Shown here piece by piece: positions 572 to 15,454 of a DNA stretch of 16,021 bases (position 1 is the first letter of the stretch; the number at the start of each line of letters is the position of its first letter). Location: IMG/VR virus record IMGVR_UViG_2713896902_000004; one strand, 5' to 3'. This stretch comes from a virus. Lineage: Duplodnaviria; Heunggongvirae; Uroviricota; Caudoviricetes. The notes beneath the pieces are model-generated. The model worked only from the letters and a program-made list of their open reading frames with translations. It was not told where the DNA came from and searched no databases. Position numbers and translations under genes: made by a program.

Positions 572-832
572 TTATTTATAGTGATGAGCAATACTGAATA
601 AATCATGATAGTTAAGTGTTTTTTCTATATTCACAGAAATCGTTTCGGATGTCATCGATTCTTGCAGATGATAACCGGTATTTTTTACAAACTCTATCAT
701 TTTACCTCGAGTACTCCCCAGTACGGGATTACCTGCATTCATAGCTTCTATTGCCACCATATAAAATAACTCCTGAAATTTGGATGGAATAATAACTAAA
801 TCAGCCAAATAATAATAGCGATGCCTTTCCAC
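572..832 (-). pseudogene. Truncated group-1 glycosyltransferase remnant (C-terminal part only)
   Basis: Translation contains ...DLVIIPSKFQELFYMVAIEAMNAGNPVLGSTRGKMIEFVKNTGY..., resembling the GT1 C-terminal motif (PS..EgFg..EAMA.G.PV). Only 86 codons are open and there is no room for the roughly 250-aa N-terminal domain before the Tfa gene at 1073. AT-rich region. Confidence 0.45.
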
Positions 833-1072: not shown

Positions 1073-1630
1073 TTAATAATTATGTGGCATTATTGGCCAA
1101 TTAACATCGGATTTGATATCGAAACTCGTACGATTTAATTGTACACGATATTTTTTTAATCTTGATAAATAAACGATTTCCTCTTCTGTAGCCATATCTA
1201 GATCTACAGCGTCTTGTAAAGGTAATATGATCTCACTTGCTACTTTGAGTAGATTTTCTTTTTCTTTGAGAAATATATTTTCTAGGTCACTAGAACTATA
1301 TTCCTTGGTGATTATTTGTTCGTTTATATATTGATATTTATCTCGAATCATTATATCTTCTGGTAATATATCCGTTTCAATAATATCAAATCCTGCAGGA
1401 TATAGTTTTGAAATGTCTGTAGCTACAGAGCATATAAACTTACTTTCAGGGTGAACACATAGTTTATATTTTTTAGTGAACATTGGGAATGACGTGTAAA
1501 AATCTAATCCATTTTCATCTATGAAGTATTGAACTTCATCTCCATAAGGTTTTTCTTCTGGATAATAGCGAGTTACTTTTGTTAATTTCATTTTGGTATT
1601 CTCATCCTGAAATGGTACGCCACGCACCAT
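1073..1630 (-). CDS. Tail fibre assembly protein (lambda Tfa / P2 gpG-like chaperone)
   Basis: C-terminal ...LLKVASEIILPLQDAVDLDMATEEEIVYLSRLKKYRVQLNRTSFDIKSDVNWPIMP matches the conserved Tfa C-terminal motif. Sits immediately 3' of the fibre gene. The start is ambiguous: the longest ORF starts at 1630 and overlaps the fibre end by 29 nt; the internal ATG at 1589-1591 (MKLTKV...) has an AGGA upstream. Strongly AT-rich. Confidence 0.85.
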   Translation of the reverse strand: MVRGVPFQDENTKMKLTKVTRYYPEEKPYGDEVQYFIDENGLDFYTSFPMFTKKYKLCVHPESKFICSVATDISKLYPAGFDIIETDILPEDIMIRDKYQYINEQIITKEYSSSDLENIFLKEKENLLKVASEIILPLQDAVDLDMATEEEIVYLSRLKKYRVQLNRTSFDIKSDVNWPIMPHNY

Positions 1631-3098
1631 TAATATTTATTTGGACTGGTTTATATCGTACGCATTCCATTTTATCACCGCCGTCAACAAATGTGATTAC
1701 GCATCCAGCGGGGGCTGAAGTAGATGACTGAACTTCTGCTCCTAATTGTATGTTTTGTATATATCGAGCGTCAGATTGAGCTTTGGTATAAATGTTCACA
1801 GTGGTTGCTTTGCTGTTAGCAAGATCAAAAGCTGCCTTCACCGCGCTTGGTGTTGCCGCTTCCGTCGTACTTGTGCTGTTCGTTGCACTATTAAGCTTCA
1901 CAACTCCTTTTTGCGTCAGTGTGGCGTCGGGGATACCAGTGATTTGTCCCCAGGCGTGGGTATGACTTGCTGGTGCAGCCGCAATAGCCTTATCCATTGC
2001 CGCCTTCACCGCGCTCGGTGTCGCAGCTTCCGTTGTGCTGGTGCTGTTTGTGGTACTGTTAAGTTTCACAACTCCTTTTTGCGTCAGCGTGGCGTCGGGG
2101 ATAGCAGTGATTTGTCCCCAGGCGTGGGTATGGCTTGCTGGTGCAGCCGCAATAGCCTTATCCATTGCCGCCTTCACCGCGCTCGGTGTTGCAGCTTCCG
2201 TCGTGCTGGTGCTGTTTGTGGTACTGTTAAGTTTCACAATTCCTTTTTGCGTCAGCGTGGCGTCGGGGATACCAGTGATTTGTCCCCAGGCGTGGGTATG
2301 GCTTGCTGGTGCAGCCGCAGTAGCCTTATCCATTGCTGCCTTCACCGCGCTCGGTGTTGCAGCTTCCGTTGTGCTGGTGCTGTTTGTGGTACTGTTAAGC
2401 TTCACAATCCCTTTCTGCGCCAGCGTACCGTCAGGGATACTGGTTATCTGATTCCAGCCATGAGTATGACTGGTGGCGGCTTTGCTATTTGCCAGGTCAT
2501 ATGCGGTTTTTACTGCTTTTGGTGTGGCCGCTTTGGTTTCATCATCGCTATTAGTTGCATTACTCAGTTGCGTGAAACCTTTCTGCGTCAGTGTTGCATC
2601 AGGATGATTTCGTGATTGCTGATGTGCTTTCAGCGTGTCATCGACATATTCCCTGGTTGCCATAACAACTGAAGGATCTATCAACAGCGTCACCACATCC
2701 GCATTTGTCACTTCCATCACTGCGCGTATAACAATTTGCTTACTGGCACCTGCAGGTAATTGTGGTTTATAGGTTTCAGGGAATTTACCAATAGCGACCA
2801 GCGTGCCGTCGGTATCCAGCAACCCAACTTCGCGAACATACCAGCCTCCAACCTCTTCGGGAATAATCGCTTCTGCGATAACCCAGGCCGGATTATCTGG
2901 CGCAATTTTTAATGTATTGAGCTGACCACGCCAGACCTCATGGACTACTTTGGTCTGGATTTCTGTCGGTTCGATATATTTACCGTTGCCATCGCCAACT
3001 ACCATAGTTTGCAGACGGATCTGTTTTTGCTCCGCCAGTGCTGAGGCAATTTGGGTTTTGCCTGCAGCAGTTAATATTGTAAAAAATTCACTTGCCAT
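1602..3098 (-). CDS. Tail fibre protein (P2 gpH / Mu S-like N-terminus, repeat-containing shaft, divergent C-terminal tip)
   Basis: N-terminus MASEFFTILTAAGKTQIASALAEQKQIRLQTMVVGDGNG...NPAWVIAEAIIPEEVGGWYVREVGLLDTDGTLVAIGKFPETYKP matches the conserved gpH-type baseplate-attachment domain. Shaft has about 4 tandem ~56-aa repeats (SHTHAWGQITGIPDATLTQKGVVKLNSTTNSTSTTEAATPSAVKAAMDKA), the motif typical of side tail fibres. Confidence 0.9.
   Translation of the reverse strand: MASEFFTILTAAGKTQIASALAEQKQIRLQTMVVGDGNGKYIEPTEIQTKVVHEVWRGQLNTLKIAPDNPAWVIAEAIIPEEVGGWYVREVGLLDTDGTLVAIGKFPETYKPQLPAGASKQIVIRAVMEVTNADVVTLLIDPSVVMATREYVDDTLKAHQQSRNHPDATLTQKGFTQLSNATNSDDETKAATPKAVKTAYDLANSKAATSHTHGWNQITSIPDGTLAQKGIVKLNSTTNSTSTTEAATPSAVKAAMDKATAAAPASHTHAWGQITGIPDATLTQKGIVKLNSTTNSTSTTEAATPSAVKAAMDKAIAAAPASHTHAWGQITAIPDATLTQKGVVKLNSTTNSTSTTEAATPSAVKAAMDKAIAAAPASHTHAWGQITGIPDATLTQKGVVKLNSATNSTSTTEAATPSAVKAAFDLANSKATTVNIYTKAQSDARYIQNIQLGAEVQSSTSAPAGCVITFVDGGDKMECVRYKPVQININGAWRTISG
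1840..2530. repeat. Tandem direct repeats, about 168-bp unit, roughly 4 near-identical copies inside the fibre gene
   Basis: Near-identical 168-bp units begin at about 1861, 2029, 2197 and 2365, with more diverged copies on either side. In frame with the fibre ORF; they also create the spurious plus-strand shadow ORFs 1746..2615 and 2035..2451. Confidence 0.85.
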
Positions 3099-3100
3099 TA

Positions 3101-3832
3101 TTACTCCGGGTATACAGACATTATTTCGGTGCTCCAGTATCCTGTACCGATTTTCATCAGTTGGGATTGTGTAAGGCGATCAGGTCGATAAGGTAGTAGT
3201 TGGATATATTCCTCTACACAATAACCTGTCGCTAAAAATATTCTTGATGATTGGCTGATACTTTCTGCAACAGGAGGCAATACTGTAATGATTTCCCCTC
3301 CTTGCATGGCACTGCCAATAACTGGTATTGAGCTTTGATTAATAAGCCAAATAACAATACTTTCCAGTTTTGAACGAACATTTTTATATTCATGAATTAA
3401 TGTGATAAGTGCATTAAATTCATCTTCATTTAACCCTTTTTCCTCTAGTGTAATATCAACCTTAAAAAAATAAGCTTTCCCGCCATATTCAAACCATTCG
3501 GTAATAGTTCCAGGCAATGAGAGTATTTCCAGTACTCGCCGTACCGCCCAAACTGTTCCTTTATATTTATGTAACTCAATGGCTTGCTTAATTAACTCAC
3601 GCTTCTCTTGTTCATCAGTAGTAAATAACCAACCTTCCAGCCCCTGAACGTGGAATTGTTCTGCAAGGGCAGGTAATGCCGAAGCATCAACCAGGTCGAC
3701 CAGGTATATCATTAATGCCGTCAGATCGAGTTGCGCAAAACGTTCGGCGGCGATATTTGCCAGAGTTGAAAAACGCTCATCGCTGGCAAGCGGCGGCGGT
3801 GGCAGCAATTTATCCATCGCTGACTCCGGCAA
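3101..3832 (-). CDS. Baseplate protein gpI-like (P2 gpI / Mu gp48 family)
   Basis: Position between the gpJ-like gene and the fibre gene, size, and overlap with the gpJ gene (23 nt). Family assigned mainly by synteny and general resemblance. Confidence 0.7.
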   Translation of the reverse strand: MPESAMDKLLPPPPLASDERFSTLANIAAERFAQLDLTALMIYLVDLVDASALPALAEQFHVQGLEGWLFTTDEQEKRELIKQAIELHKYKGTVWAVRRVLEILSLPGTITEWFEYGGKAYFFKVDITLEEKGLNEDEFNALITLIHEYKNVRSKLESIVIWLINQSSIPVIGSAMQGGEIITVLPPVAESISQSSRIFLATGYCVEEYIQLLPYRPDRLTQSQLMKIGTGYWSTEIMSVYPE

Positions 3833-4925
3833 TCGTGACGTCTATTACAGTGCATTCCGCCCATTCATGCGCCTGCAAAATACGTTTTGTAGGCATGTTC
3901 AGCACAACGTCATAGACGCCATCGACTTGTAACACTTTGATTATCTGGTTTGGCACAATGTCCTGCCCCAGATGTTTCTGCCGCTGTTGCGTCCAGAGGC
4001 TAATCGCTTTACGCGCCGCAGCCAGTGTTGTCTCCTGATCGGCGGTGGTAAACAGCGTTAGCTGCGCACGAATTTCATACGGCACCCTAAGAGCACATTT
4101 CGCACTTACTTTGTCAGTCAGCGGACGTTTTTTCTCTTTACTCACTTCTTGTTCAATTTGCGCGAGTAGCTCGGTTCCCGGCAGACCATTCAGGGTTAGC
4201 GGGTAGAGCTCGACGCAGCCTTCTGGCAACCCTTCATCTGGCCCCAGTACTGCAACGTCAATAATTGACTGGCTAACCGAAAGTGTATGAAAGCGATATG
4301 CGCCATAGCTGCCGGCATTACTGAAGCTTTCTGGCGCCAGTTGTATACGCTGGCGTAGTGCATCATCGTTCTCTTCACCGCAACCGCCGGTTGTGGGAGT
4401 CAGATTAGTCACGTTGATATCGTAATAACCGATCCTGTCAACAAGGGCGCTAATCTGTGCAGGCTGCCAGCCATTGCCCTGTTCACCTGCTGCGAGGCTG
4501 GTGGCCGGAACGGCGATATGCAAACTCCTGGCCGGAAGCAGAACATCTTCATCGGTGGCGAACATCACGCTGTCAGAGGCACTGGCCCGCGTCCCCTGGG
4601 GAATCAGGATATTGCTGGTATACGCACTGACGACCGAAAACTGCAACGTCGTTTTTGCCGATTGTGCAGGTAAACGGTGAACACCCACCAGCTCCCCTAA
4701 ATAATCCAACATTGGTGCGCGGGAATACGTGACCAGGTTTTGTTTCGCCGCTTCCTGAATGGCGATGCGCACAAGGTTTTCACGATAGGCAAACAGGTCG
4801 ATGAGTAACCGTTCGGCCTGTGCCGGATAGAGTTTTTTACCGCTGGCATCTTCGTATTGCGCAATCATCTCGCTGGTAATTTGCGCAGGATCGCGGTCAA
4901 TAAAATCGGGTTCGGCTATCGCCAT
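3810..4925 (-). CDS. Baseplate wedge protein gpJ-like (Baseplate_J / T4 gp6-like)
   Basis: 371-aa ORF directly after the gpW-like gene with overlapping junction; sequence character typical of Baseplate_J proteins; conserved V-W-J-I-H-G order. Confidence 0.8.
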   Translation of the reverse strand: MAIAEPDFIDRDPAQITSEMIAQYEDASGKKLYPAQAERLLIDLFAYRENLVRIAIQEAAKQNLVTYSRAPMLDYLGELVGVHRLPAQSAKTTLQFSVVSAYTSNILIPQGTRASASDSVMFATDEDVLLPARSLHIAVPATSLAAGEQGNGWQPAQISALVDRIGYYDINVTNLTPTTGGCGEENDDALRQRIQLAPESFSNAGSYGAYRFHTLSVSQSIIDVAVLGPDEGLPEGCVELYPLTLNGLPGTELLAQIEQEVSKEKKRPLTDKVSAKCALRVPYEIRAQLTLFTTADQETTLAAARKAISLWTQQRQKHLGQDIVPNQIIKVLQVDGVYDVVLNMPTKRILQAHEWAECTVIDVTIAGVSDG

Positions 4926-5275
4926 AACACCTCCGTTGAGTTGATTACGCCGTCAGCGGCGCGCCATTGCACACGTAACGTCAGATGTTCACCGTCGATT
5001 ATCGGTGCTACCTTCAGCAACCGACATCGCGGTTCCCACTGGCGGATGGCTTCCACCGACTCCCGTACCACATGCGGGATTGCCCGCTCGATGGGGTAAT
5101 CGATGTAGTGCCACAAGTTGCTGCCAAACAGCGGTCTGTGGGGATCACTGCCGCGCGGCGTGCGCAGAATGATGTGTATTGCCTGGTGAATATCATCCAG
5201 TCCGCAGACGTATTCTTCAGGCCGCTGCAAGGCGGGTTGCCAGTGCAGCGTTGAGGGGCGTGTTTTTGTGTTCAT
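4916..5275 (-). CDS. Baseplate wedge protein gpW-like (GPW/gp25 family)
   Basis: 119 aa; ...DDIHQAIHIILRTPRGSDPHRPLFGSNLWHYIDYPIERAIPHVVRESVEAIRQWEPRCRLLKV... resembles the gp25/GPW family; sits between the V-like and J-like genes. Confidence 0.8.
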   Translation of the reverse strand: MNTKTRPSTLHWQPALQRPEEYVCGLDDIHQAIHIILRTPRGSDPHRPLFGSNLWHYIDYPIERAIPHVVRESVEAIRQWEPRCRLLKVAPIIDGEHLTLRVQWRAADGVINSTEVLWR

Positions 5276-5336
5276 GTGCTTATTTTCGCCCTGAACGGAC
5301 AGTGGGGATATTAAAGCGATTTAGAAAACTGATTGA

Positions 5337-5368
5337 TTAAAAAGAGAAAACCCGCCATCAGGCGGGTT
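5337..5368 (-). terminator. Intrinsic-terminator-like hairpin between the gpV-like and gpW-like genes
   Basis: On the minus strand, 4 nt after the gpV stop: AACCCGCC-TGAT-GGCGGGTT (8-bp GC-rich stem, 4-nt loop) followed by TTTTCTCTTTTT. Confidence 0.5.
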
Positions 5369-5373
5369 AAAAG

Positions 5374-6033
5374 CTAGTGTGAATGGTGATTTGAGTTACC
5401 ACCGCTATCCTGCAATGTGCCGCTGGCCTGAACGTTACCAATCACATTGACATTGCCAGTTATCGTGGCGGCGTTACCGATGCCTCCACTTCCTGCCATG
5501 CCACCCAGCCAGGTGAGTTTTTTCATTACTGTGACGTTACCAGTAAAGGTGCTCATGGGCGCATCTACCGTCACTGTCGCCGCTTTAATATCGACGGTAT
5601 CGGAAGTCACGGTGACCTGTTGGGCTTTAACCTCAACGTTGGGTGATGTCAGGTTAGTATGGTCAATAACCTCAATCACGATTTTCTCAATACCGCCGTT
5701 AATCGTAAGCTGGTGTGTGCTGCGGTCATATTCAAACGCTGCGCCATCAGAAAACTGGACGTAACGTTTATCTCGCGAGGCCACAGGCGCGGTGTCAACC
5801 GTAGAATAAACGGCCCCAAGTACCACGCCATCTTCGCCGTTGTCGTCCAGCAGAACTTCCACCTGCTCACCCATATCCGGTAGCCAGTAGTCTTTATTGT
5901 CCTGGGAATTACGTTGAAGTACCGCAAGCCAGTTACTCTTCAGATTGTCGCACTCTGGCAGTGTGACTCGCACCCGAACGCTGGTTTCGTCAATATCGCT
6001 GATAATCCCCGTTTGCCGGGTTACTCCCTTCAT
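5374..6033 (-). CDS. Baseplate central spike protein gpV-like (P2 gpV / Mu gp45 family)
   Basis: 219 aa; N-terminal OB-fold-like region (…NGEDGVVLGAVYS…) and a C-terminal Gly/Val/Asn-rich beta-helix-like region (GNVTVMKK…GNVNVIGNVQASGTL) typical of spike proteins; follows the gpD-like hub gene. Confidence 0.8.
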   Translation of the reverse strand: MKGVTRQTGIISDIDETSVRVRVTLPECDNLKSNWLAVLQRNSQDNKDYWLPDMGEQVEVLLDDNGEDGVVLGAVYSTVDTAPVASRDKRYVQFSDGAAFEYDRSTHQLTINGGIEKIVIEVIDHTNLTSPNVEVKAQQVTVTSDTVDIKAATVTVDAPMSTFTGNVTVMKKLTWLGGMAGSGGIGNAATITGNVNVIGNVQASGTLQDSGGNSNHHSH

Positions 6034-6042
6034 AGTGCCTCC

Positions 6043-7083
6043 TTACTGGCTGGTTGCTGGCCCGCGCGAAACGTCGATTTCAGTGGTATAGCCGCTGCGC
6101 ACAAAACTGTGAGTAGATTTATCAATCAGCCATTGTCCAGAAAGAATACCAAAATCAATGAGTTCGATTTTATTGCCTGCTGTCAGTTCCGGGCAGCCCA
6201 TCATCCTGAGTGTTCCGGTTTGCTGATATTCGTTGTGGCTGTCGAGTGCAGCGTTGGCCTTTGCCTGTGCCGCGCCAACATCCGTCGCCCGGCTGTTGAG
6301 TTTCAACGTGTCGGCACTGGTGCCGACTCCACGGGCTGACGGTTTTTGCTGGCTGTCGTGAGTGTAGATAACCAGTTCTTTTTTCTTACTATTTTGATGC
6401 TGTACGGTGGCGTTCTTGTAGATGCGATTAATGGTGTCTTTGAAGGTAAAGTGCGAAACCTCTTTACGGTCGATGGTTTTCACTGGCGCCAGGCAGCGTA
6501 GTGTCGGCAGATGTGAAAAAATCAGCTCTTTTGTCGTCACTTTCACGGCATAGCCATATTCGCTGGCCAGACGCTTGAGAAATCCAACATCGGTTTCGCC
6601 GTACTGTGTCACCCGGTCAATCGCCAGTGGCTCGATTTTGCCCACCAGCTTCAGACCGTGAGTTTGCGCGATACGACTGGCGATGGCCGAAAGCGTCGTT
6701 TCTTCAAAGCCCTGACTGTTACGGGTACGCAGCGCCTGATTGACGGAAGTGGCAATGCCATCAATATTTACCGTGGAAGGTGGTGCTGAAATATCAATTT
6801 TATCAATAACATACTGACCGCAATCGAGGAGCGTCTCCCCCTGATAACCCATATGTAGCGCCAGCGTATCGCCTTTGCCGGGATACCACTCTTTTATCCA
6901 ACGTCCATCGGTGTCATCCAGTGTAATGGCGATGGTATCTGACTCGTTTTTGATGCTGTCGTGGTAACTGATGCTGGTGACATAGGGCGTGATGTCATAA
7001 GTGATATCTTTATGCCCATACCAAAGGGTAAAAATGGGCGCGAGTGTGGCAAAGACGCCACCAGATACGCTTATCTCAGCCAT
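6043..7083 (-). CDS. Baseplate hub protein gpD-like (P2 late control gene D / Mu gp44 / VgrG-N family)
   Basis: 346 aa with the family character (…SDTIAITLDDTDGRW…PGKGDTLALHMGYQGETLLDCGQYVIDKIDISAPP…); conserved position after the gpX-like gene. Confidence 0.8.
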   Translation of the reverse strand: MAEISVSGGVFATLAPIFTLWYGHKDITYDITPYVTSISYHDSIKNESDTIAITLDDTDGRWIKEWYPGKGDTLALHMGYQGETLLDCGQYVIDKIDISAPPSTVNIDGIATSVNQALRTRNSQGFEETTLSAIASRIAQTHGLKLVGKIEPLAIDRVTQYGETDVGFLKRLASEYGYAVKVTTKELIFSHLPTLRCLAPVKTIDRKEVSHFTFKDTINRIYKNATVQHQNSKKKELVIYTHDSQQKPSARGVGTSADTLKLNSRATDVGAAQAKANAALDSHNEYQQTGTLRMMGCPELTAGNKIELIDFGILSGQWLIDKSTHSFVRSGYTTEIDVSRGPATSQ

Positions 7084-7283
7084 GGTGGTATCTCCGATAA
7101 GGTTTTGTTGACGGAAATGACCGGAATAATGAGTTGAATACCGGAAGGCAGTACCGGGTAAATGGCGACATGTGGATTGGCGGCGATGATGCGTTCATAA
7201 GCCAGCGCATCGCCGTAGTAATACCATGCCAGATTATCCCAGCGTTCGCCGTCGGTGGTGATATGTTCAAGGTATCGCATCAC
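7071..7283 (-). CDS. Tail protein X-like (P2 gpX, LysM-like baseplate protein)
   Basis: 70 aa; TTDGERWDNLAWYYYGDALAYERIIAANPHVAIYPVLPSGIQLIIP parallels the gpX pattern (T..GDTLD.I..RYYG…VL.ANP…LP.G..V.LP). ATGA overlap with the upstream gene. Confidence 0.7.
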   Translation of the reverse strand: MMRYLEHITTDGERWDNLAWYYYGDALAYERIIAANPHVAIYPVLPSGIQLIIPVISVNKTLSEIPPWLR

Positions 7284-8233
7284 CAGCTCCTCGTAATGGT
7301 CGCGGCAGCAAGCTGGCTCACTGCGGGAGTGGTTTGTTGTACCGTTGTTCGTGCCTGCTCAACCAACGTTGCGGCTTTATCGAACGTCGCTTCGGCGATG
7401 TCGTTGGTAATGTCGTCGAAAAGCGCCTGAGCATGGTCAACCAGCGTGCTGGCGTCTTTGGCGCAGTCCCGGATACCTGGCATGTTACCCAGTAAAGCGT
7501 TAATCTGCGCCGATAACGCTTTTGGGAGTCCTGCCAGCGTTTGCAGATCCATGGGCTGTTTAAACAGGGTTTCGATGGCGTCGATAGTCTTTTTCAACGA
7601 CGTAATTATCTTTTCACACTTTTCTTTTAACGCTTTGGCCTCTTTAACCAGTGCTTTCACTTTTGCCACCGTTTTTTTAATATCTTCAATGGCTTGAGTC
7701 AGCTCATCGAGCATCTCTTTGGCCTTACGCATACCTTCTTCAATGGCGTTCAATATCTGATCAAACCAGGACTCCACCATGTCTGGAAAATCGCTCGCCT
7801 TTTCGTCAATATTCGGGTCTTGGGTAGTAATTGCCGGGGGCAAGAGTGGATTTTTAGGATCACCGGTGTACTCCTGGAGCGACATTGTTCCGCTTTGAGC
7901 AATCACATTGCCCCAGGGATCGGTGTGCTGGTGGGTGGCGGTTAGCTCCGTAATCACAAACCAGCCGCGATAATCGCCATTGCCAAACACCAGAGCCATC
8001 GCTTTGTGGGCAAGCATGCCTTCACGCAGTCGATTCAGCTCTGTTGTGGGTTGGCAAAACTGGCTGTGCAAGGAAAATTCCAGTGCCAGCATATCCAGCT
8101 TATCGCCAATAAACTGCACGCCGGGTTTGCCTTCTATACGGGCATGTGTGGCGTAGTCCACGCCCATTGTGCTTTTAAAGCCGTCCCAGAATGTGACAAC
8201 CTTAAATTCAATCTCTCCTAAAACGGCATACAT
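7280..8233 (-). CDS. gpU-like tail/baseplate protein with a long alpha-helical, coiled-coil-like C-terminal extension
   Basis: The first ~120 aa loosely resemble P2 gpU-type tail proteins, and the gene sits in the gpU position (TMP-U-X-D). The C-terminal ~180 aa are rich in A/K/E/L heptad-like sequence. Start overlaps the TMP stop by 1 nt. Confidence 0.5.
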   Translation of the reverse strand: MYAVLGEIEFKVVTFWDGFKSTMGVDYATHARIEGKPGVQFIGDKLDMLALEFSLHSQFCQPTTELNRLREGMLAHKAMALVFGNGDYRGWFVITELTATHQHTDPWGNVIAQSGTMSLQEYTGDPKNPLLPPAITTQDPNIDEKASDFPDMVESWFDQILNAIEEGMRKAKEMLDELTQAIEDIKKTVAKVKALVKEAKALKEKCEKIITSLKKTIDAIETLFKQPMDLQTLAGLPKALSAQINALLGNMPGIRDCAKDASTLVDHAQALFDDITNDIAEATFDKAATLVEQARTTVQQTTPAVSQLAAATITRSW

Positions 8234-10608
8234 CAGGCATACCCCCGGCGCTGTTGTTGCGCCATTACGTCGTTAATCATTCTTTCCAGTTCGCGTTTAC
8301 TTATCGTCAACACGTTCTGAATGTCTTTAGTGGTGTTTTGTCCGTTACTCTGCACGGTAATTTGTGGCGAAAAATTCACCTGAACTTTTCCAGAGGAACG
8401 GGAGGGTAGCGTCGCCGGTTTGGTTACAGATTTACCAGGTAAAGAGGCCGATGCGGGTTTGGCTGCTGTATTTTTTGCCGCTGGTGTCGATGGCGACGTT
8501 GTCGTTTTACTGGATGGCGCGAGTTGTTTGCCCACAGGAGGCGTTAAAATCGCTCCGGCAACGCCTGGAACAACGGTCGTGGGGGAGATTGATGCGGTAT
8601 TCGTCGTGCTTGTAACAGCCGTAGCCGATCCTTCTGTGCTAATACCCATCGTGGTTTTTAGCCAGTCCGGTAAGGCGTTTTTGACCTGATCAATAATGCC
8701 TTTCAGAGCGGGGAAAGCATTCATTATGCCGTCAACCAGACTGCCCAGAAGATTGCTGCCGAACTCGCTAAAACTTGCAGGCATCTCGATACCAAACCAA
8801 TTCATCACACTGGAAAAGGCGCTGTAGAACAACTCCAGCGGCGACCAGTCGAGAATTAACCGGCAAATCCCTGCAATGCCGCCGTCAAAGGCCGTGGTGA
8901 TACGTTGCCAGATGGCGGAAAAGAATCTGGAGATAGGTTCCCAGTGGCGATAGATCAGATAAGCAGCGCCCGCAATCGCGGTGATGACCAGACCAATGGG
9001 ATTCATCAATAAAACTCTACCCAACCAGAAGACGGTCTGACCTGCCAGTTTCAATGCGCCAATCAGGCCACGGCCAAGCAGTTGCGTTAGCCATTTTGCG
9101 CCGTTATATAATGACTTAACCGCTGATAGCATCTTACTTGCCGCGCCTGTGAGCGTCAGACTTGCCCTGACTTTCAGGAAGATATCGACCAGACGAATAA
9201 ACGGCGAGGCGATGACGTTCGCGCCCAGCTTTAAAACATTCAGTGCGCCGTTAAACAGCCAAATCGCTCCGACGATTTTCGCAATGTTTTGCACCAGCGC
9301 CGGGTGTTCACGTAGCCAGGCGCTGAACTGGCGAATCACCGGAGTAAGGCTTTGCGCCAACTCGCCAATCAGCGGCATTAATTGCAAGCCAATGCTGAGC
9401 CATAAATCATTTAACGCCAGTTGTAACGTTTTAGTTTGTTCAATGGGCGAGGCCATCTGCACAGAAAAATCGTTGTCAATCATATTCTTACCGCTGTCTT
9501 GCATGGCGGAGGCTTTTAACTGGCGATACTCTTCCATATTCGCCAGCACAGGTGCCAGGAATTCCACTGTTTGCGCATCGCCGAACATTTCGCCCAGATT
9601 AAATTGCGTCACCATCGATTGCAGTGCGTTGCTGCGAGCAGATAAATCTTCAATTTGCATGGTGCGTTTGAAGGTGTCGAGGATCGCCGGATTCATCTTC
9701 TCAAGTTGCGTTTGCACGATATGAATCATGGCTTCGCTAACACCCATGCCGTTTTGCTGATGTTCAAGCAGAGAGCCTTGCAGATCGACGCCCTGGCTGA
9801 CGAACCAGTTATCGGTTTTTTTCGAAAAGATGGTTTGCAGAAAGTGGTCGAAATTCTCCGCCGCCACACTGGCGCTGGCACCATTTTTCATTGCGATCTG
9901 CATTGTGGCGGTCAGTTCAGCCATACCTTCTAAACCCTGTGCGCCAGTTTTAACTGCAAATTTGTCTATCCACTGCGCTTGCCCGGCAACGGTAGGCCCA
10001 CCGTTTTTGCTAATGCCGTACATCATGTTTTGCGCGGCGTGGAAATTTTCTGGCGCAATATTCAGTCGATCATGAGTCGCGAGCGCGGCATTCGCCCATG
10101 TTTCAGCACTTTCGCGCGTGGTGGTGGCTGCTTTGGCGATCTCCGGCATATAACGGTTGAGATCCTGCATCGACGACAAATTACCTTCGATTAGCACCTG
10201 GGCTGCGTTCTGTAAGGTGGTCTGCTGCTGGTTAAAATCCATACTCCAGTCGCGCAGATTAAGGCTGAGTGTCTCGCGGGTTGTATCATTCATCCCACCT
10301 TTGGTCGCCAAATTGACCATGTTGTCCTGAAACTCATACGGCAACTTCCAGTCAGGGACTTCAACATTGAATACTTTGCTAAATTGCCCGGCAAATGTTT
10401 GGGTTTTCTCCATCAGATCAGCGCGGTTTCGGCTATTTTCCTCCAGGCGGAGAGCGGAATCGGCAAGTTGCTGCGTTAGTTTGATTACTGCCGCTTGCTG
10501 AGAAGAGAGTGCTAACAATGTTCTGGCGTTGAGTGAGCCGTAACGGGCTATTGCCTGCGTCAACGTCTCATTACGCGTCTGAAGCTGGGTAATAATATCG
10601 TTGGCCAA
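8233..10608 (-). CDS. Tail tape measure protein
   Basis: 791 aa, largest gene of the module, directly after the chaperone gene; alpha-helical N-terminal half, several hydrophobic segments in the middle, Ser/Thr/Pro-rich low-complexity C-terminal region. Annotated start is TTG with AAGAGA upstream. Confidence 0.8.
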   Translation of the reverse strand: MANDIITQLQTRNETLTQAIARYGSLNARTLLALSSQQAAVIKLTQQLADSALRLEENSRNRADLMEKTQTFAGQFSKVFNVEVPDWKLPYEFQDNMVNLATKGGMNDTTRETLSLNLRDWSMDFNQQQTTLQNAAQVLIEGNLSSMQDLNRYMPEIAKAATTTRESAETWANAALATHDRLNIAPENFHAAQNMMYGISKNGGPTVAGQAQWIDKFAVKTGAQGLEGMAELTATMQIAMKNGASASVAAENFDHFLQTIFSKKTDNWFVSQGVDLQGSLLEHQQNGMGVSEAMIHIVQTQLEKMNPAILDTFKRTMQIEDLSARSNALQSMVTQFNLGEMFGDAQTVEFLAPVLANMEEYRQLKASAMQDSGKNMIDNDFSVQMASPIEQTKTLQLALNDLWLSIGLQLMPLIGELAQSLTPVIRQFSAWLREHPALVQNIAKIVGAIWLFNGALNVLKLGANVIASPFIRLVDIFLKVRASLTLTGAASKMLSAVKSLYNGAKWLTQLLGRGLIGALKLAGQTVFWLGRVLLMNPIGLVITAIAGAAYLIYRHWEPISRFFSAIWQRITTAFDGGIAGICRLILDWSPLELFYSAFSSVMNWFGIEMPASFSEFGSNLLGSLVDGIMNAFPALKGIIDQVKNALPDWLKTTMGISTEGSATAVTSTTNTASISPTTVVPGVAGAILTPPVGKQLAPSSKTTTSPSTPAAKNTAAKPASASLPGKSVTKPATLPSRSSGKVQVNFSPQITVQSNGQNTTKDIQNVLTISKRELERMINDVMAQQQRRGYA

Positions 10609-10708
10609 AATTGTTTCTCTTATAGATTGGTGATGGCCCGCTGGTTAGTTTTCTGAAAAATGGGCTGGGAAGAAATAAACCTGGCGAGCTTTGAAGAACT
10701 CGCAGACA

Positions 10709-10930
10709 TCAGGTCTGCGAGTCATATTCGATTTTTATTTGAGCGCTGGCTTCATCCAGCCAGTGACTAAAGTCATCTATCGTGAGCGAGTCAATCTCAC
10801 TGGGTGGAAAGCGAAACCATCTCGCCAGTAGCGCCATTGCCTGCCATAGCAAGGGGGGATTCTGTAGCCACGGTAAGCATGGATTGAAATCGTTTCTGCA
10901 ACGCCTGGTAATCCAGCAAATCCATTTCAG
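10709..10930 (-). other. Open +1-frame window overlapping the 3' end of the chaperone gene; candidate programmed-frameshift extension (gpE'-like)
   Basis: Relative to the chaperone frame, the +1 frame is open from 10930 to a TGA at 10709-10711, running about 29 codons past the chaperone stop (…FPPSEIDSLTIDDFSHWLDEASAQIKIEYDSQT). A C6 run (10853-10858; TCC CCC CTT in frame 0, CCC CCC TTG in +1) is a possible slip site. The -1 frame closes 8 codons after the chaperone stop. Confidence 0.35.
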
Positions 10931-11114
10931 CTAAATCTTCTGGTACCAGCCCGGTCATCGCTGCCATTAGCGGTTCATCCCATTCTTCCGGCTTTTCGCT
11001 GACCCGGCGTGCATTACGCATATCTTTGACTTTCAGGCGACGTAATTGTAGCGTGTCGATATTATTTCCTGCTGCCGACGTAAAGGGAAACTGTAAGATA
11101 TAATGCTCTTTCAT
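10797..11114 (-). CDS. Tail assembly chaperone (P2 gpE-like)
   Basis: 105 aa between the tube and tape-measure genes; …LQLRRLKVKDMRNARRV…LMAAMTGLVPEDLAEMDLLDYQALQKRF… resembles the gpE family; AAGGA Shine-Dalgarno upstream. Confidence 0.7.
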   Translation of the reverse strand: MKEHYILQFPFTSAAGNNIDTLQLRRLKVKDMRNARRVSEKPEEWDEPLMAAMTGLVPEDLAEMDLLDYQALQKRFQSMLTVATESPLAMAGNGATGEMVSLSTQ

Positions 11115-11140
11115 TTTGTATCCTTATTTATTTTTCGGAG

Positions 11141-11160
11141 TTCGGGGCCGTAGCCCCGAA
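11141..11160 (-). other. GC-rich intercistronic stem-loop between the tube and chaperone genes
   Basis: TTCGGGGC-CGTA-GCCCCGAA, perfect 8-bp stem with 4-nt loop, starting 4 nt after the tube stop; no U-tract follows on the minus strand. Confidence 0.4.
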
Positions 11161-11164
11161 TAAC

Positions 11165-11689
11165 TTAGCCACCGATGTTATTGCGATAGGTACTTAATTG
11201 ATCCACGCCGTTAACGCGGAAAATATTCGCCATATAATCCAGTTCAAGCAGCGTTTCACCATCGACTACTTGTTTAATATAAGTGCAGCCAAAGGCGCTG
11301 CTGAATTCCGGGTTTTCATTCTGTTTAAATGTGCCCAGTGGATTTTTTTTAAACATCACGGTTAAATGTGTGACTAACGCTAATTGATTCGCTTTCCCCT
11401 GAGAGTTATAACAATCGATACTGGAGCGACACTGTAATGCTACAGCCTGCCACGGGTTTGCCGTTTTACGCATTACGTCCTGGTAAAAGGAGTTCCATTT
11501 AATTTCCCCCTCCAGTTTATCGAAACCAGCCGGGAGTTCTATTTTACCCACCATGCCCAGTGCTTTATGTTCCTGCATAATTAAACTGACATCTGGCAAT
11601 TTAATTTCTGTTGCACGGCCTAAAAGATTATTACCATCGAGATAAATATTGGCGTTGGTAATACGGTTAATTTGAATTTTTCCAGCCAT
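11165..11689 (-). CDS. Tail tube protein (P2 FII-like)
   Basis: 174 aa immediately after the sheath gene with a 1-nt overlap; size and sequence character of contractile-tail tube proteins. Confidence 0.8.
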   Translation of the reverse strand: MAGKIQINRITNANIYLDGNNLLGRATEIKLPDVSLIMQEHKALGMVGKIELPAGFDKLEGEIKWNSFYQDVMRKTANPWQAVALQCRSSIDCYNSQGKANQLALVTHLTVMFKKNPLGTFKQNENPEFSSAFGCTYIKQVVDGETLLELDYMANIFRVNGVDQLSTYRNNIGG

Positions 11690-13116
11690 TAGCGATTGCT
11701 CTCCAGAGAGACTAAATATTCAGAGGTAATTTCAGTTTCAAACGTCAGACGTTCCAGCGGCGGCGGTGGGGTAAATTTATAGCTGAGCAATAAATGCCCG
11801 GCACTGAGTTCAGCCGGTGAATTTCGCGCCGGATCGTACCAGCACTCAAAGCCAAGCAGTGCGCCGTCGGCAATCAGTTTTCGGCCCCAGGTATTTACCG
11901 ATTCGGTCAGCGCGTCAATCAGTGCCTGATTGATCGGCATATCAATATACTGTTGACTGAAATAACGGATTGACTCATTAATTACATCGCCTGTCCGGCG
12001 AACGTTTTCAAAGTTACGCATATGAGTCACGGTTGGCCATGCCGCTGTGCGGTTGCCCCACAGGCGCAGACCAGAACCATAACTATTGAAAATAGTGGTA
12101 ATACCGTTTTCGTTGAGCTGATTCACTTCGCTTTGTGGATCATCAATCATTGCGGAAAGCGAACGTTCGATACCGGTAATACCCTGAATTTCCTGGTTTG
12201 AGTTGCTCCACCAGAAACCTTTTTCGAGGTCTACTTTGGCACGTAGCCCGGCAGCGCGCGAAGAGAGAGGTTCAAGAATTTCCTGGTTAGTGATGCCATC
12301 GTAAACTTTGACGTGTGGGTAGCATAAACGTGCACGATCAGAGCTGGTATTGAAGTTGATTGCGCCTTGCGAACCGCGTCCAGCCAATACCTGCTGGAAT
12401 GTAGTCCCAATTGGGGCATCAATGTAGGTAATCGCACCGAGTTTTTCCGCTTGTGCAATCAGCTCGGTAGTCACTGATTTTTGCGTACAAAAAACGGGTG
12501 CCAGCAGAATTTTGGCGTAGAAACCATACAAGTTATAAGTGTCCTGAAGGAGCCTCATCCCCGTGCGATCGCCTGCGGTATTAACGGCCCCGATAATATC
12601 GGCTGCGGTGACCTTTGTAGGGTCAACATAGGTATAAGTCGCGTAAACCTTTGCTCCTGCCGCAATTTCAGTTCCTGTACGGGTAATAACGCCGTCAGCG
12701 GCATTAACGCTGTATGATGTATTTTTGTATGTAGTGGAACTGATACTTGCTCTTAGCGTTACCGAACTTACCCCCGGATGAGTTAATTTAGCTTTATCGT
12801 CACTATTGAACGTAATGGTTTCATTGGTAATGTGTAGTCCATGTTTTACTGGATCCAGCACATTAATTACCACCACTGTACCGGCACCGTGATCATAAAT
12901 CGCCTTCAGCGCCTGCGGGATCGTAAAGTTAGCCTGAGTCGATCCAAACTGTGCCGCGTCACTTTCAGAAAGGCACAGCGTCGGTTGGTTTACCGGGCCA
13001 CAGGGAGCGGTACCGATTAAAGCGATTACAGCAGATTTTACTGCTTTTACCGGACGCGGGCCGGTTTCAATTTCAATGGTTTCTACACCGTGCAGATAAT
13101 TAGCTGCCATGTACAA
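11689..13116 (-). CDS. Tail sheath protein
   Basis: 475 aa; C-terminal conserved sheath motif (…GSGLRLWGNRTAAWP…); followed by tube gene with overlapping stop/start. Confidence 0.9.
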   Translation of the reverse strand: MYMAANYLHGVETIEIETGPRPVKAVKSAVIALIGTAPCGPVNQPTLCLSESDAAQFGSTQANFTIPQALKAIYDHGAGTVVVINVLDPVKHGLHITNETITFNSDDKAKLTHPGVSSVTLRASISSTTYKNTSYSVNAADGVITRTGTEIAAGAKVYATYTYVDPTKVTAADIIGAVNTAGDRTGMRLLQDTYNLYGFYAKILLAPVFCTQKSVTTELIAQAEKLGAITYIDAPIGTTFQQVLAGRGSQGAINFNTSSDRARLCYPHVKVYDGITNQEILEPLSSRAAGLRAKVDLEKGFWWSNSNQEIQGITGIERSLSAMIDDPQSEVNQLNENGITTIFNSYGSGLRLWGNRTAAWPTVTHMRNFENVRRTGDVINESIRYFSQQYIDMPINQALIDALTESVNTWGRKLIADGALLGFECWYDPARNSPAELSAGHLLLSYKFTPPPPLERLTFETEITSEYLVSLESNR

Positions 13117-13297
13117 TTTCCTCTACGTTATTTTGTTCTTCCTGGGGAATGATGAGAATCAAGTGATTTCGGGCAATCATGGTCATAACCCACTCATTGT
13201 CTTCTGGCAGATCAATTTCACTGTTCGGCCATAATAAGATTTCTTGACCGTCGGCAAGGGTGACGCCGCTTGCCGGACCGTTGTAGATATATTTCAT
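13100..13297 (-). CDS. Small conserved phage protein preceding the sheath gene (Mu gp38/DUF2635-like by position)
   Basis: 65 aa; ATGA overlap with the upstream gene and 17-nt overlap with the sheath start; assignment by position and size only. Confidence 0.35.
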   Translation of the reverse strand: MKYIYNGPASGVTLADGQEILLWPNSEIDLPEDNEWVMTMIARNHLILIIPQEEQNNVEEIVHGS

Positions 13298-13749
13298 TCA
13301 GTTTCCTCGTAATTAACTTCAGTAAGCAGGGGAAGATCCGTGCTGTCCTGTTCAGCGATAAACAGCGAGCTGGTCGCCATTTCCAGGATGTAGCGGCAGA
13401 AACCGTCGCTCTCACCCGTATTAATTTCTTTTTCAAGCCAAATAAGATGATCGCAATCAGGAGGCTGAAGGCCTCCCAATGCGCTGCGTATGTGATCAAG
13501 TGCGTTTAACGCATCACAATTTTTGCCAACAATAACGGTGGCGGTTAAGCGGAGTATTTGCTGTTGTACAATGGCATCACTACTTTCGGGCGTGGTGAAG
13601 ACAGAACCGCTATAATTAATAATCACCGTAATCTGTTGTGTCTGTGGAATATATTTTTGGGCATCCGTAGATGAAATGAATATGTCCATTTCAGGATGCC
13701 GATCACGTAATCTGACCACGACATAATTCATTACAGATAAAATTTTCAT
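13294..13749 (-). CDS. Putative tail completion/terminator protein (Mu gp37-like by position)
   Basis: 151 aa, first gene of the tail block after the terminator at 13855-13891; coupled to the next gene by an ATGA overlap; assignment by synteny. Confidence 0.4.
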   Translation of the reverse strand: MKILSVMNYVVVRLRDRHPEMDIFISSTDAQKYIPQTQQITVIINYSGSVFTTPESSDAIVQQQILRLTATVIVGKNCDALNALDHIRSALGGLQPPDCDHLIWLEKEINTGESDGFCRYILEMATSSLFIAEQDSTDLPLLTEVNYEETE

Positions 13750-13854
13750 ATGAGGTGTACCTTAATTACCGCTCACTTCGTTATCGTTGAAATGTATTCT
13801 GAAGCAGTGAGAGTGAAGAATCTTTTAATGTGATTTAGAGAAAAAATTGAATGG

Positions 13855-13891
13855 TTATAAAAAATCCCCACACTTACGTAAAGGTGGGGAT
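13855..13891 (-). terminator. Intrinsic terminator after the lysis cassette
   Basis: On the minus strand, 4 nt after the stop of the 104-aa gene: ATCCCCAC…GTGGGGAT (8-bp stem with a partly self-pairing 12-nt loop) followed by TTTTTTATAA. Confidence 0.55.
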
Positions 13892-13895
13892 GTAT

Positions 13896-14210
13896 TTAAT
13901 AACTGCCACGTTGTAATAACTCTATTTTGCTATATAAGGCATCCAGCTTTGCTTCTAATACTGCTTGTCCACGAAGATAATCCTCTCTGCGGACATAATA
14001 CAGTGGAAGTTCGGCACGAAATTCGAGAAATTCTCTTTCCAGTTTCGACCAGCTTGTTTCTGATTCCCTGCGGGCATTTTCCAGGGACTCAAAACGCTCA
14101 TTAAGTCTTTTTTCAATTTGCGCTAACAGCAATTTTCCGGCAGCAAACATTAATCCAACGAATGAAAGCATAAAGGAGATCACTTCCCAAAAATCGATAC
14201 TGAGTTTCAT
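13896..14210 (-). CDS. Membrane-anchored coiled-coil protein, possible i-spanin (Rz-like) or lysis accessory protein
   Basis: 104 aa; N-terminal hydrophobic helix (ISFMLSFVGLMFAAGKLLLAQI) followed by a charged helical region; immediately after the transglycosylase gene. Confidence 0.4.
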   Translation of the reverse strand: MKLSIDFWEVISFMLSFVGLMFAAGKLLLAQIEKRLNERFESLENARRESETSWSKLEREFLEFRAELPLYYVRREDYLRGQAVLEAKLDALYSKIELLQRGSY

Positions 14211-14222
14211 CGGCCCCTCTGA

Positions 14223-14828
14223 TTAGTGAAGACAGCTTGCCTGTCCCCAGAGTAAGTAGCGGGCGGCGTGTTGATAGAGAATCATCTTCGGATAGTGACG
14301 ATTTTCTCGCCAGTTTGCGGCGCTGCGCCCGGCGTTGACTTGCTCAACATGACCAAACCAGATGGCGGCATTTAACCCTTTTGTTGTCGCCAGTTTTTTA
14401 TCCCGGTTAATCCAACCCTGACCACCGTTATAGGCGCTTAGAGTAAACGCCATACGTTGACAATCATTTTTTGCAGAGATGTTGTTCCATAAATGCTGGT
14501 CGTACTGTACCAACGCCCGGATTGCCCAGGTTGGGTTATACGGTTTGTTTTCATGTAGCTGTGGATACAGTTGGCTTATCCATGTCGCTGTGGCAGGCAT
14601 AAATTGCGCCATACCTTGTGCGCCAACGGGGGAACGTACCATTGGCTGCCAGGCGGACTCCTGGTGTAATTGCCCGGCAAAGTCAGCCACAGGAGCGTTC
14701 AGTCCCCAGACTTCTCGGGCGGTACGAATCAATTCATTTCTCCATGCCAGAGAGGCTTGTGGTGGTTCAGACGCATTAAGCGGGAAAAGAACGAAAATAA
14801 TCATAGGCGCGATATATTTTAGCCACAT
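14223..14828 (-). CDS. Lytic transglycosylase (SLT-domain endolysin candidate) with N-terminal signal peptide
   Basis: SLT catalytic motifs: …QLHQESAWQ… (catalytic Glu-Ser), …GAQGMAQFMPATA…, …AYNGGQGW…. The longest ORF runs to 14927 but the likely start is the ATG at 14826-14828 (MWLKYIAPMIIFVLFPLNA, Sec-type signal peptide), 2 nt after the upstream stop. Confidence 0.85.
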   Translation of the reverse strand: MWLKYIAPMIIFVLFPLNASEPPQASLAWRNELIRTAREVWGLNAPVADFAGQLHQESAWQPMVRSPVGAQGMAQFMPATATWISQLYPQLHENKPYNPTWAIRALVQYDQHLWNNISAKNDCQRMAFTLSAYNGGQGWINRDKKLATTKGLNAAIWFGHVEQVNAGRSAANWRENRHYPKMILYQHAARYLLWGQASCLH

Positions 14829-14830
14829 CA

Positions 14831-15118
14831 CTATAGCCCTAACGCGACGGAAAGGCAGACTGCAGCCACGATGATGGCGCGACGAATCATTGCCGCTGCG
14901 TAGCAACGCGGTTCCTTCCTGGGGCAAAAAAAGTCAGGCCGTGCCCAGGGGAACAAACTACGATCGAGCCAGTATCCCAGCACTGCGGAAAGTGAAACCA
15001 GGCTTAGTTTATAAATGACGACCGGAATTTGTGCTGAAGATGTCCAGCCGATCAATGCAATCAGAGCAATGGCTGCAGCCAGCCAACCGGAAAGACGGGG
15101 AAAAGTGATTTTTTTCAT
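14831..15118 (-). CDS. Holin-like small membrane protein
   Basis: 95 aa with 2-3 predicted transmembrane helices; strong AGGAG 8 nt upstream of the ATG; first gene of the lysis cassette, tightly coupled to the transglycosylase gene. Function by position only. Confidence 0.4.
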   Translation of the reverse strand: MKKITFPRLSGWLAAAIALIALIGWTSSAQIPVVIYKLSLVSLSAVLGYWLDRSLFPWARPDFFCPRKEPRCYAAAMIRRAIIVAAVCLSVALGL

Positions 15119-15434: not shown

Positions 15435-15454
15435 CACTGTATATGTATACAGTA
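15435..15454. promoter_or_regulatory. LexA (SOS) box
   Basis: CACTGTATATGTATACAGTA matches the E. coli LexA consensus TACTGTATATATATACAGTA at 18/20 with intact CTGT-N8-ACAG. Overlaps a possible minus-strand promoter (-35 TTTACA, 16-nt spacer, -10 TACAGT) and lies just downstream of a possible plus-strand promoter (-35 TTGAAA 15404-15409). Confidence 0.6.

Follow-up and report, generated by a model that had tools for sequence, protein, structure and literature searches.

The window analysed here is a stretch of 16,021 nucleotides (nt) of the virus record IMGVR_UViG_2713896902_000004, in which all long open reading frames (ORFs) lie on the minus strand. Between the gene for a gpV-like baseplate spike protein and that for a gpW/gp25-like wedge protein there is a gap of exactly 98 nt (5276-5373). 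The remaining junctions in the window mostly overlap or measure 12 nt or less, except for the one upstream of the gp37-family gene (146 nt), the one following the tube gene (50 nt) and a 188-nt region of a chaperone frameshift. A sequence-only reading had drawn attention to this unusual gap amid overlapping junctions, to a terminator-like hairpin that would split the structural genes into two transcription units, and to a possible -10 hexamer, TAATAT, just downstream. The size of the gap and the presence of the hairpin were confirmed. The gap is likely a compact operon boundary, consisting of a terminator followed directly by a Mor/C-type, activator-dependent sigma-70 promoter.

The hairpin starts 5 nt past the gpV stop codon in coding-strand orientation. 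As RNA it reads AACCCGCC-UGAU-GGCGGGUU, followed by the U-tract UUCUCUUUUU (5368-5339). The stem comprises 8 bp including 6 GC pairs and closes a loop of 4 nt; the computed folding free energy was -15.3 kcal/mol (z = -5.0), and none of 200 shuffled sequences folded as stably. Eight of the ten nucleotides in the U-tract are U, as are those of the final two stem pairs. Both strands were scanned with strict terminator criteria (at least seven perfect pairs, at least five of them GC, and at least seven T in the next ten nucleotides). The gap hairpin was the sole match in the window, compared to an expectation of 0.01 per shuffled window, and it ranked top in another scan as well. No T-run was present on the plus strand beside the hairpin, suggesting a unidirectional terminator that would serve the tail-gene transcript. 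In a search of 5426 E. coli genomes the segment was restricted to the 195 that carry the cluster and occurred there in single copy, which rules out a dispersed repeat of the repetitive extragenic palindromic (REP) or bacterial interspersed mosaic element type. A search of the whole window against Rfam at gathering thresholds matched no family. A 15-codon ORF that begins in the hairpin loop was dismissed, as the loop varies among relatives.

This variation was informative with regard to the hairpin itself. In about 11 diverged enteric lineages the CCCGCC/GGCGGG stem was invariant and its 5' flank variable. Nine different loops were present across these lineages, among them UGAU, AUUCA, GUAAU, GCUAA, GCAAU, AUUAA, UCA and CAA. 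One A-to-G change in relatives leaves the stem paired only through an RNA G.U wobble; a double compensatory change was not observed in the gap hairpin of the approximately 11 lineages. The preservation of stem and U-tract alongside a freely changing loop and 5' flank suggests selection on an RNA terminator. Comparison and folding thus support the assignment of the hairpin as a canonical intrinsic (Rho-independent) terminator.

The remainder of the gap looks like a Mor/C-type activator-dependent promoter. Next to the terminator follows an A/T-rich segment and, adjoining it, a 16-bp dyad, TCTAA-ATCGCT-TTAAT, in which 5-bp inverted repeats flank a G/C-rich spacer of 6 bp. This dyad, termed Mor box in the following, is a predicted site for an activator of the Mor family. 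A predicted -10 hexamer, GAAAAT, follows the dyad at a distance of 22 nt and is separated from the gpW ATG by 6 nt. No -35 element was found for this hexamer, the sequence at 17-bp spacing (TATCCC) agreeing in only 2 of 6 positions, and an extended -10 (TGn) was absent as well. A generic sigma-70 scan reported no promoter in the V-W gap, a result which is uninformative alone but fits activator dependence. The promoters of phage Mu that depend on Mor or C likewise have a recognisable -10 and no -35. The site bound by a dimer of either activator is an imperfect 16-bp dyad in which a G/C-rich hexanucleotide separates two inverted repeats of 5 bp; this dyad spans -51 to -36, with its centre at -43.5, in place of a -35 element, and the bases just downstream of it are important (PMC4390567, PMC2582627, PMC4287176). 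In the Mu promoter Pm, an A/T-rich site for RNA polymerase's alpha-subunit C-terminal domain (alpha-CTD) is located immediately upstream of the Mor site (PMC4390567). With a predicted start 7 nt after the hexamer, the dyad at gpW would occupy -50 to -35, centred at -42.5. A 12-bp palindrome, TAAA-N4-TTTA, had been considered as the unit and was dropped in favour of the 16-bp dyad, because the sites at the gp37-family gene and in phage BcepMu show the outer TAA/TTAA as conserved positions.

The arrangement was compared in about 90 relatives from Enterobacteriaceae, Pandoraea, Chromobacterium and BcepMu-like phages. In nearly all of them a common register precedes the gpW ATG: YCTAA-N6-TTAAW with a G/C-rich N6, 22 nt, the hexamer nAnnAT, and 6 nt (7 in one subgroup of Chromobacterium). 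The window, E. coli, Salmonella and 18 genomes of a species-level collection have it, with Phytobacter, Dryocola, Superficieibacter, Pandoraea and more than 11 species of Chromobacterium represented, independent of the upstream sequence. Four complete phages share it: BcepMu, phiE255, E. coli PhiKM and Pseudomonas Komp_PAO1_1. Among 76 more loci from a viral collection, 36 of 51 distinct sequences had the exact register and most others deviated by 1 nt; one was a pET-vector artefact. In this locus, L052 (IMGVR_UViG_3300050189_000002), a T7 promoter, a lac operator and a pET-type ribosome-binding site precede gpW (TAATACGACTCACTATAGGGGAATTGTGAGCGGATAACAATT...AAGGAGATATACC), and its upstream region is thus expression-vector sequence within a public viral collection. 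Within the hexamer, A2 and T6 were kept in essentially all relatives, the variants including GAAAAT, CACGAT, CAATAT, CATCAT, CACCAT, CAACAT and GACAAT. A perfect palindrome of 14 bp, TTAAAGCGCTTTAA, occurs at the dyad in Salmonella and Pandoraea. The A/T-rich segment showed a 'TCAA..TTT' pattern, which the chromosomal relatives from enterics and Chromobacterium keep also in cases where the sequence farther upstream diverges. Altogether, about 62 nt adjoining gpW are common to the relatives, and the hairpin is not universal; in Salmonella, the similarity to the gap of the window begins right after the T-tract. The emphasis which the sequence-only reading had placed on the hairpin has to shift: the terminator looks real, but the old, constrained element is predicted to be the promoter, given that the phages have the box and no hairpin.

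The TAATAT proposed earlier as -10 is present in the window, but it overlaps the right half-site of the dyad. The equivalent position reads TAAAAG in Chromobacterium, at the gp37 site and at the BcepMu holin and protease sites, and CCAAAG in L021, in all cases without T6. The conservation of A2 and T6 at the downstream position makes GAAAAT the better candidate, and TAATAT is probably not the -10. The GAAAAT hexamer ends 6 nt before the ATG, which would place a canonical +1 on or beside the A of the start codon (5275). The duplex of the gpW upstream region with the anti-Shine-Dalgarno sequence amounted to -3.7 kcal/mol at a distance of more than 10 nt from the ATG, compared to -12.1 for V and -10.8 for J. 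Values for gpW of the relatives ranged from -1.7 to -8.6, the stronger ones being misplaced. The gene therefore has no usable Shine-Dalgarno (SD) sequence, nor is it translationally coupled across 98 nt to the gene upstream. The fixed distance between hexamer and ATG together with the lack of a usable SD points to a leaderless or near-leaderless gpW mRNA, a reading we hold to be somewhat more probable than its opposite. The gene V mRNA of phage P2 is a classic leaderless example, though one that a literature search left unconfirmed.

A similar configuration was observed in BcepMu (L029, NC_005882.1; 18811-18864). There the head protease gp32 is annotated to start at 18850, within the predicted -10 of a Mor-box module, and an in-frame ATG follows at 18862, 7 nt past the hexamer, which makes it a second case of the gpW-like design. 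The true start of gp32 is probably this ATG at 18862, and it may be leaderless.

The design of terminator plus box is repeated in the only other true large gap of the window, upstream of the gp37-family gene. The spacing of this second module is identical in E. coli, Salmonella, Phytobacter, Dryocola and Superficieibacter; 22-nt spacing and hexamer (CAGAAT, CAAAAT, GATAAT) are conserved across six genera. The terminator in front of it, after the 104-aa gene of the lysis cassette, shows compensatory stem changes in Superficieibacter (ATCCCTGC/GCAGGGAT). The exact pattern YTAA-N6-TTAAW-N23-A-N2-AT matched the window twice, compared to 0.03 matches expected, and the two matches were the gpW and gp37 sites (the latter at 13838-13796), both on the coding strand. 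A position weight matrix (PWM) built from non-enteric gpW sites only scored 21.7 bits at gpW of the window, above all 200 shuffle maxima. A further PWM without the BcepMu and Pandoraea sites recovered four sites in BcepMu with 18.4-23.9 bits, compared to 11.6 bits for the next best and a shuffle maximum of 17.9. All four are intergenic, on the coding strand, and upstream of gp19, the holin gene gp21, the head protease gene gp32 and gpW. The window carries a Mor-family activator gene, divergent from the lysis and tail genes. Its product is 48% identical to BcepMu gp01, the single Mor/C homologue of that phage, with a near-identical C-terminal helix, and is the presumed activator of both modules.

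A third full module was searched for upstream of the holin gene of the window and not found. The region contains a partial block, TTTTTTAAAGTTATTTATTAAAG (~15184-15206, minus strand), which is invariant in E. coli, Salmonella and Superficieibacter and includes Mor-box-like half-sites with GA(C/T)ACT at module spacing from the second one. This block may be a candidate for an atypical or double activator site of the lysis operon. The features of the gap, its flanking genes and the related elements are compiled in Table 1.

Table 1 Features of the V-W gap and related elements in the window
Feature	Position	Strand	Remarks
gpV-like baseplate spike gene	5374-6033	-	PF04717, E = 7.7e-08; last gene of upstream unit
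gpV stop codon TAG	5376-5374	-	
Terminator hairpin	5368-5349	-	arms AACCCGCC (5368-5361) and GGCGGGTT (5356-5349), loop TGAT (5360-5357)
Terminator U/T-tract	5348-5339	-	TTCTCTTTTT; kept in all relatives with hairpin
A/T-rich segment	5337-5326	-	ATCAATCAGTTT; adjoins dyad on upstream side; candidate alpha-CTD/UP-like promoter part
Mor box (16-bp dyad)	5325-5310	-	TCTAA-ATCGCT-TTAAT; predicted Mor-family activator site
TAATAT, -10 candidate of the sequence-only reading	5313-5308	-	overlaps right half-site of dyad
Predicted -10 hexamer GAAAAT	5287-5282	-	22 nt after dyad, 6 nt before ATG
gpW-like wedge gene (gpW/gp25)	4916-5275	-	PF04965; first gene of downstream unit
Second terminator	13891-13858	-	AUCCCCAC..GUGGGGAU + UUUUUU; free energy -15.5; after 104-aa lysis-cassette gene
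Second Mor-box module	13839-13796	-	TCTAA-ATCACA-TTAAA, 22 nt, CAGAAT; upstream of gp37-family gene (13294-13749)
Mor-family transcription activator gene	15674-16021	+	PF08765, E = 1.2e-37; divergent from lysis/tail genes
Terminator-like hairpin after Tfa gene	984-1014	both	bidirectional; free energy -16.4, z = -6.0

We infer termination, Mor binding, the position of the start site and leaderless translation, and propose that they act together as follows. The terminator (5368-5339) would end the transcript that covers the gp37-family gene and the sheath, tube, tape measure, hub and spike genes. A Mor dimer would bind the dyad where a -35 element would otherwise sit and recruit RNA polymerase. 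Transcription would begin on the A of the gpW ATG or beside it, and gpW, J, I, fibre and Tfa would share a leaderless mRNA. The most likely role of the hairpin would be to block read-through from upstream and thereby to avert occlusion of the Mor-dependent promoter. It would also avoid read-through RNAs in which the gpW AUG is internal, lacks an SD and cannot be translated, and it probably protects or stabilises the 3' end of the upstream mRNA. The split into two transcription units suggested by the sequence-only reading is thus backed by comparison, namely by a conserved terminator that precedes a conserved promoter-like module. The downstream unit likely ends at the hairpin behind the Tfa gene.

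The two parts of the boundary appear to differ in age. In complete BcepMu-like phages the V-W gap measures 45-63 nt and contains essentially the module only, without a terminator. In enteric tail-only clusters it measures 96-100 nt, and the extra ~45 nt correspond to hairpin and U-tract, which separate the V stop from the A/T-rich promoter edge. This comparison indicates that the promoter is ancestral to BcepMu-like tails and that the hairpin was added in the chromosomal tail-only clusters of enterics.

The junction also accommodates foreign DNA. In Salmonella SARB27 (L006, 7423-10747, minus strand) the O-antigen glucosylation cassette gtrABC (STM4204-4206) and an 80-aa ORF are located exactly between the gpV stop and the gpW box, a 3-kb insertion bracketed by a REP-like direct repeat of ~46 bp, GTGCATnAACACnGGCCCGGTAAGCGCAGAAGCGCCACCGGGCAAA. 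Phytobacter (L008, 9825-9950) has a REP-like palindrome within the terminator hairpin, whose outer stem can still pair and whose U-tract is kept, and Dryocola (L009, 9743-10000) has an element resembling enterobacterial repetitive intergenic consensus (ERIC) sequences, AATCCCCAGGAGCTTACTTAAGTAAGTGACTGGGG, in the gap. In phage-sized BcepMu-like contigs, cargo lies between gpV and the box, shortly before gpW at ~1486-1501; in L072, L074, L076, L078 and L083 it is on the same strand and encodes an 81-93 aa CV_2116-like protein (PF21617), and in L077, L079 and L081 it is a DUF4145 gene of ~220 aa on the opposite strand. The position of such cargo in BcepMu-like contigs resembles a moron slot. Even where the genes are rearranged, as in L021-L024 from Chromobacterium (~5900-10400) with the order V, fibre, Tfa, gpI, box, W, J, the Mor box still abuts gpW. 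Tolerance of insertions at this junction is expected if gpW expression is independent of read-through. Extended to all BcepMu-type contractile tails, these observations would mean that gpW is expressed from an ancient Mor-dependent promoter at its own AUG and is translated only from Mor-initiated leaderless transcripts. The autonomy of the promoter would make the V/W junction a universal 'safe harbour' for cargo such as gtrABC, DUF4145 and CV_2116-like genes, and the enteric clusters would have recruited the insulating terminator later. We offer this general scheme tentatively, with slightly more doubt than conviction.

Several observations weigh against the proposed boundary or parts of it. 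The support for a terminator combined with a promoter is comparative throughout. The U-tract UUUUCUCUUUUU is broken by two C, and the efficiency of termination may thus be lower than 100%. Complete phages lack the hairpin, and in Salmonella, Phytobacter and Dryocola it is disrupted or replaced, which suggests that tail production can do without it. With +1 at the A of the ATG, the centre of the dyad is off by 1 bp from the Mu value. The PWM from distant sites gave 16.1 bits at the gp37 site, about the 95th percentile of the shuffle maxima, and the block upstream of the holin gene in the window combines a good left with a poor right half-site and scores poorly. As to leaderless translation, leaderless mRNAs are generally poorly translated in E. 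coli, and weak SDs are also found at other genes of the cluster, which are translationally coupled.

Some of these points would suit a leaky attenuator, the best of the alternatives although in our view an unlikely one. Termination would then be partial, the genes from gpW to Tfa would be expressed mostly by read-through, and wedge and fibre proteins would be made at lower stoichiometry than sheath, tube and hub, with the block upstream of gpW acting as an element of translation or mRNA stability. The interrupted U-tract is compatible with such leakage, V and W could be co-transcribed in the phages that have no terminator, and fewer copies of wedge and fibre proteins than of sheath and tube are generally needed. 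Read-through RNA, however, would present gpW as an internal AUG, uncoupled and without SD, which should be poorly translated. The block upstream of gpW moreover has the anatomy of a Mor/C promoter, with the dyad at a fixed spacing to a hexamer that keeps A2 and T6, and it recurs at the starts of other operons (BcepMu holin and head protease) where the logic of attenuation does not apply. Dependence of gpW on read-through is also difficult to reconcile with the insertions tolerated between V and the box, which can be as large as the 3-kb gtrABC cluster or consist of a DUF4145 gene on the opposite strand.

Even less probable is that the hairpin is an evolutionary scar, left behind by mobile DNA or a moron, for instance as the terminator of a lost cargo gene, and has no selected role in the tail cluster. 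Its absence from the ancestral phage arrangement and the presence of gtrABC with REP-like repeats, of REP and ERIC elements and of cargo ORFs at the same junction in other lineages would agree with such an origin, the more so as morons typically bring their own terminator. A mere remnant would hardly preserve stem and U-tract in about 11 lineages with loop and 5' flank free to change, a pattern that suggests purifying selection, nor would it be matched by an analogous terminator with compensatory stem changes before the other Mor-box module. An origin by capture would be compatible with a function today. A constitutive or host-controlled sigma-70 promoter with TAATAT as -10, a 26-nt leader and the palindrome as repressor operator is very improbable: the hexamer matches TATAAT in 4 of 6 positions including A2 and T6 and is conserved in enterics, Pandoraea and BcepMu, but it has no -35 at 16-18 bp and no extended -10, was not reported by the promoter scan, loses T6 in its TAAAAG and CCAAAG equivalents where the downstream hexamer keeps A2 and T6, and the cluster contains no repressor gene. 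An operon boundary formed by a terminator and a Mor-dependent promoter remains the preferred reading.

The genes around this boundary form a complete contractile tail. Pfam assignments identified D, X, U, tape measure, chaperone, tube and sheath upstream, and J, I, fibre and Tfa downstream. E. coli relatives carry the gpV-like coding sequence under the annotation 'phage baseplate assembly protein V'. A 42-bp in-frame indel distinguishes the relatives: the product has 219 aa in E. coli A37, as in the window, and 233 aa in E. coli ws5-3 and LSC52 (L001, L003 at 1975-2676). Of 5426 complete E. coli genomes, 195 (~3.6%) contain the V-W region, at 92-94% identity, once per genome and in all cases on the chromosome. 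In E. coli A37 (L005) the cluster sits between yjbD-side genes and lysC and comprises holin, SLT endolysin, membrane protein, gp37-family, sheath, tube, chaperones, tape measure, U, X, D, V, W, J, I, fibre and Tfa-like genes, together with a Mor-family activator gene transcribed divergently; genes for a head, a transposase, an integrase or replication are absent from it. The gene content of the window matches this cluster (1073-16021) and ends with mor. Salmonella (SARB27, L006) has the same cluster at the same locus, with the LT2 tags STM4198-4219. The closest complete phages are BcepMu-like transposable phages (Bcepmuvirus), whose gpW is 59-69% identical, and the Gp37 Pfam family originates from the BcepMu-like group. 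Judged by these genes, the window is a BcepMu-derived, tail-only, tailocin-like cluster. It combines tail, lysis and regulator genes and lacks head, replication and integration genes, which is the gene content of an R-type tailocin; a literature search returned no experimental account of bactericidal tail particles made by it.

The ~16-kb cluster next to lysC resembles an uncharacterised tailocin locus. A literature search for the lysC-adjacent cluster or its promoters (STM42xx tags, tailocins of E. coli and Salmonella, BcepMu tailocin or late promoters) found nothing. The 'tailocin' of ST131 is a different, P2-like prophage (PMC9205054), and the account of BceTMilo contains no promoter data (PMC5411513).

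Some further observations concern the rest of the window. The SLT-endolysin ORF (14223-14927, minus strand) was called mechanically from a TTG and overlaps the holin gene by 97 nt; the E. coli annotation gives an SLT endolysin of 201 aa, so that the real start is probably an internal codon further downstream. Downstream of the Tfa terminator lies an ORF of 86 aa (572-832, minus strand). Its similarity is confined to the C-terminal part of group-1 glycosyltransferases, and it probably represents a fragmentary gene at the cluster margin. Another stable hairpin (11141-11160, minus strand), UUCGGGGC-UACG-GCCCCGAA, lies in the 50-nt gap that separates the tube gene from the chaperone genes; it has an UNCG-type tetraloop and no U-tract, and it may have a role in mRNA stabilisation or processing and keep sheath and tube transcripts abundant. 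On the plus strand, a 53-aa ORF extends over 5179-5340.

The analysis provides, for a widespread tail-only cluster as well as for BcepMu-like phages, a testable Mor-box consensus of YCTAA-N6-TTAAW, 22 nt and a -10. The regulation of this cluster is apparently undescribed in the literature searched. Three Mor-controlled units are predicted: lysis; shaft, hub and spike; wedge and fibre. A rationale is offered for the location of the O-antigen-modifying gtrABC and of other cargo exactly between gpV and gpW, and a conserved leaderless mRNA of a structural gene is proposed. For the engineering of tailocins from such clusters, these signals would have to be kept or replaced. No description of late promoters in BcepMu-like phages was found in the literature searched, although an earlier one may exist.

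The terminator as such is ordinary, and the Mor/C-type late promoter predicted after it is of a known kind too. Like other enterobacterial Rho-independent terminators, the hairpin has an 8-bp G/C-rich stem, a 4-nt loop, a free energy of about -15 and a U-rich tract, is located a few nucleotides past a stop codon and is strand-specific; only the two C in the U-tract and the direct packing against the next promoter differ from the usual form. The closest counterparts of the gpW module are the middle and late promoters of Mu (Pm, Plys, PI, PP and Pmom), which share the -10 without -35, the 16-bp dyad and the A/T-rich upstream segment. Mu also encodes a small activator of the Mor/C family, and several such promoters divide its lysis, head and tail genes into separate late units; the four sites of BcepMu parallel Plys, PI and PP. 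In contrast to Mu, the half-sites here are YCTAA/TTAAW, the dyad would be centred at -42.5 from the predicted start rather than at -43.5, a single activator replaces the cascade of Mor and then C, the predicted start coincides with the start codon, and the proposed unit boundary lies between spike (V) and wedge (W).

Phage P2 has the late operons PV (V-W-J-I-H-G) and PF (FI-FII-E-T-U-D), both activated by Ogr. In P2, too, the contractile-tail genes fall into two units, one for shaft and hub and one for baseplate and fibre, and each is served by a late promoter that depends on an activator. Ogr is a zinc-finger protein, however, and not a Mor/C homologue, and the boundary in P2 lies before V instead of between V and W; the order in the window runs in one direction from sheath to D, V and then W to Tfa. 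Phage morons, such as the gtrABC cassettes for O-antigen modification in Salmonella prophages and remnants, are a further parallel. Here, too, a junction of late units takes up autonomous cargo, namely gtrABC in the Salmonella LT2-type cluster (STM4198-4219) and the DUF4145 and CV_2116-like genes in BcepMu-like prophages; in the window this junction holds no cargo but only the terminator. R-type tailocins such as the R-pyocins and BceTMilo resemble the cluster in their chromosomal lysis cassette, full contractile tail and regulator and in the absence of head, replication and integration genes. The cluster described here differs from them in its derivation from a BcepMu-like transposable phage and in its predicted control by Mor.

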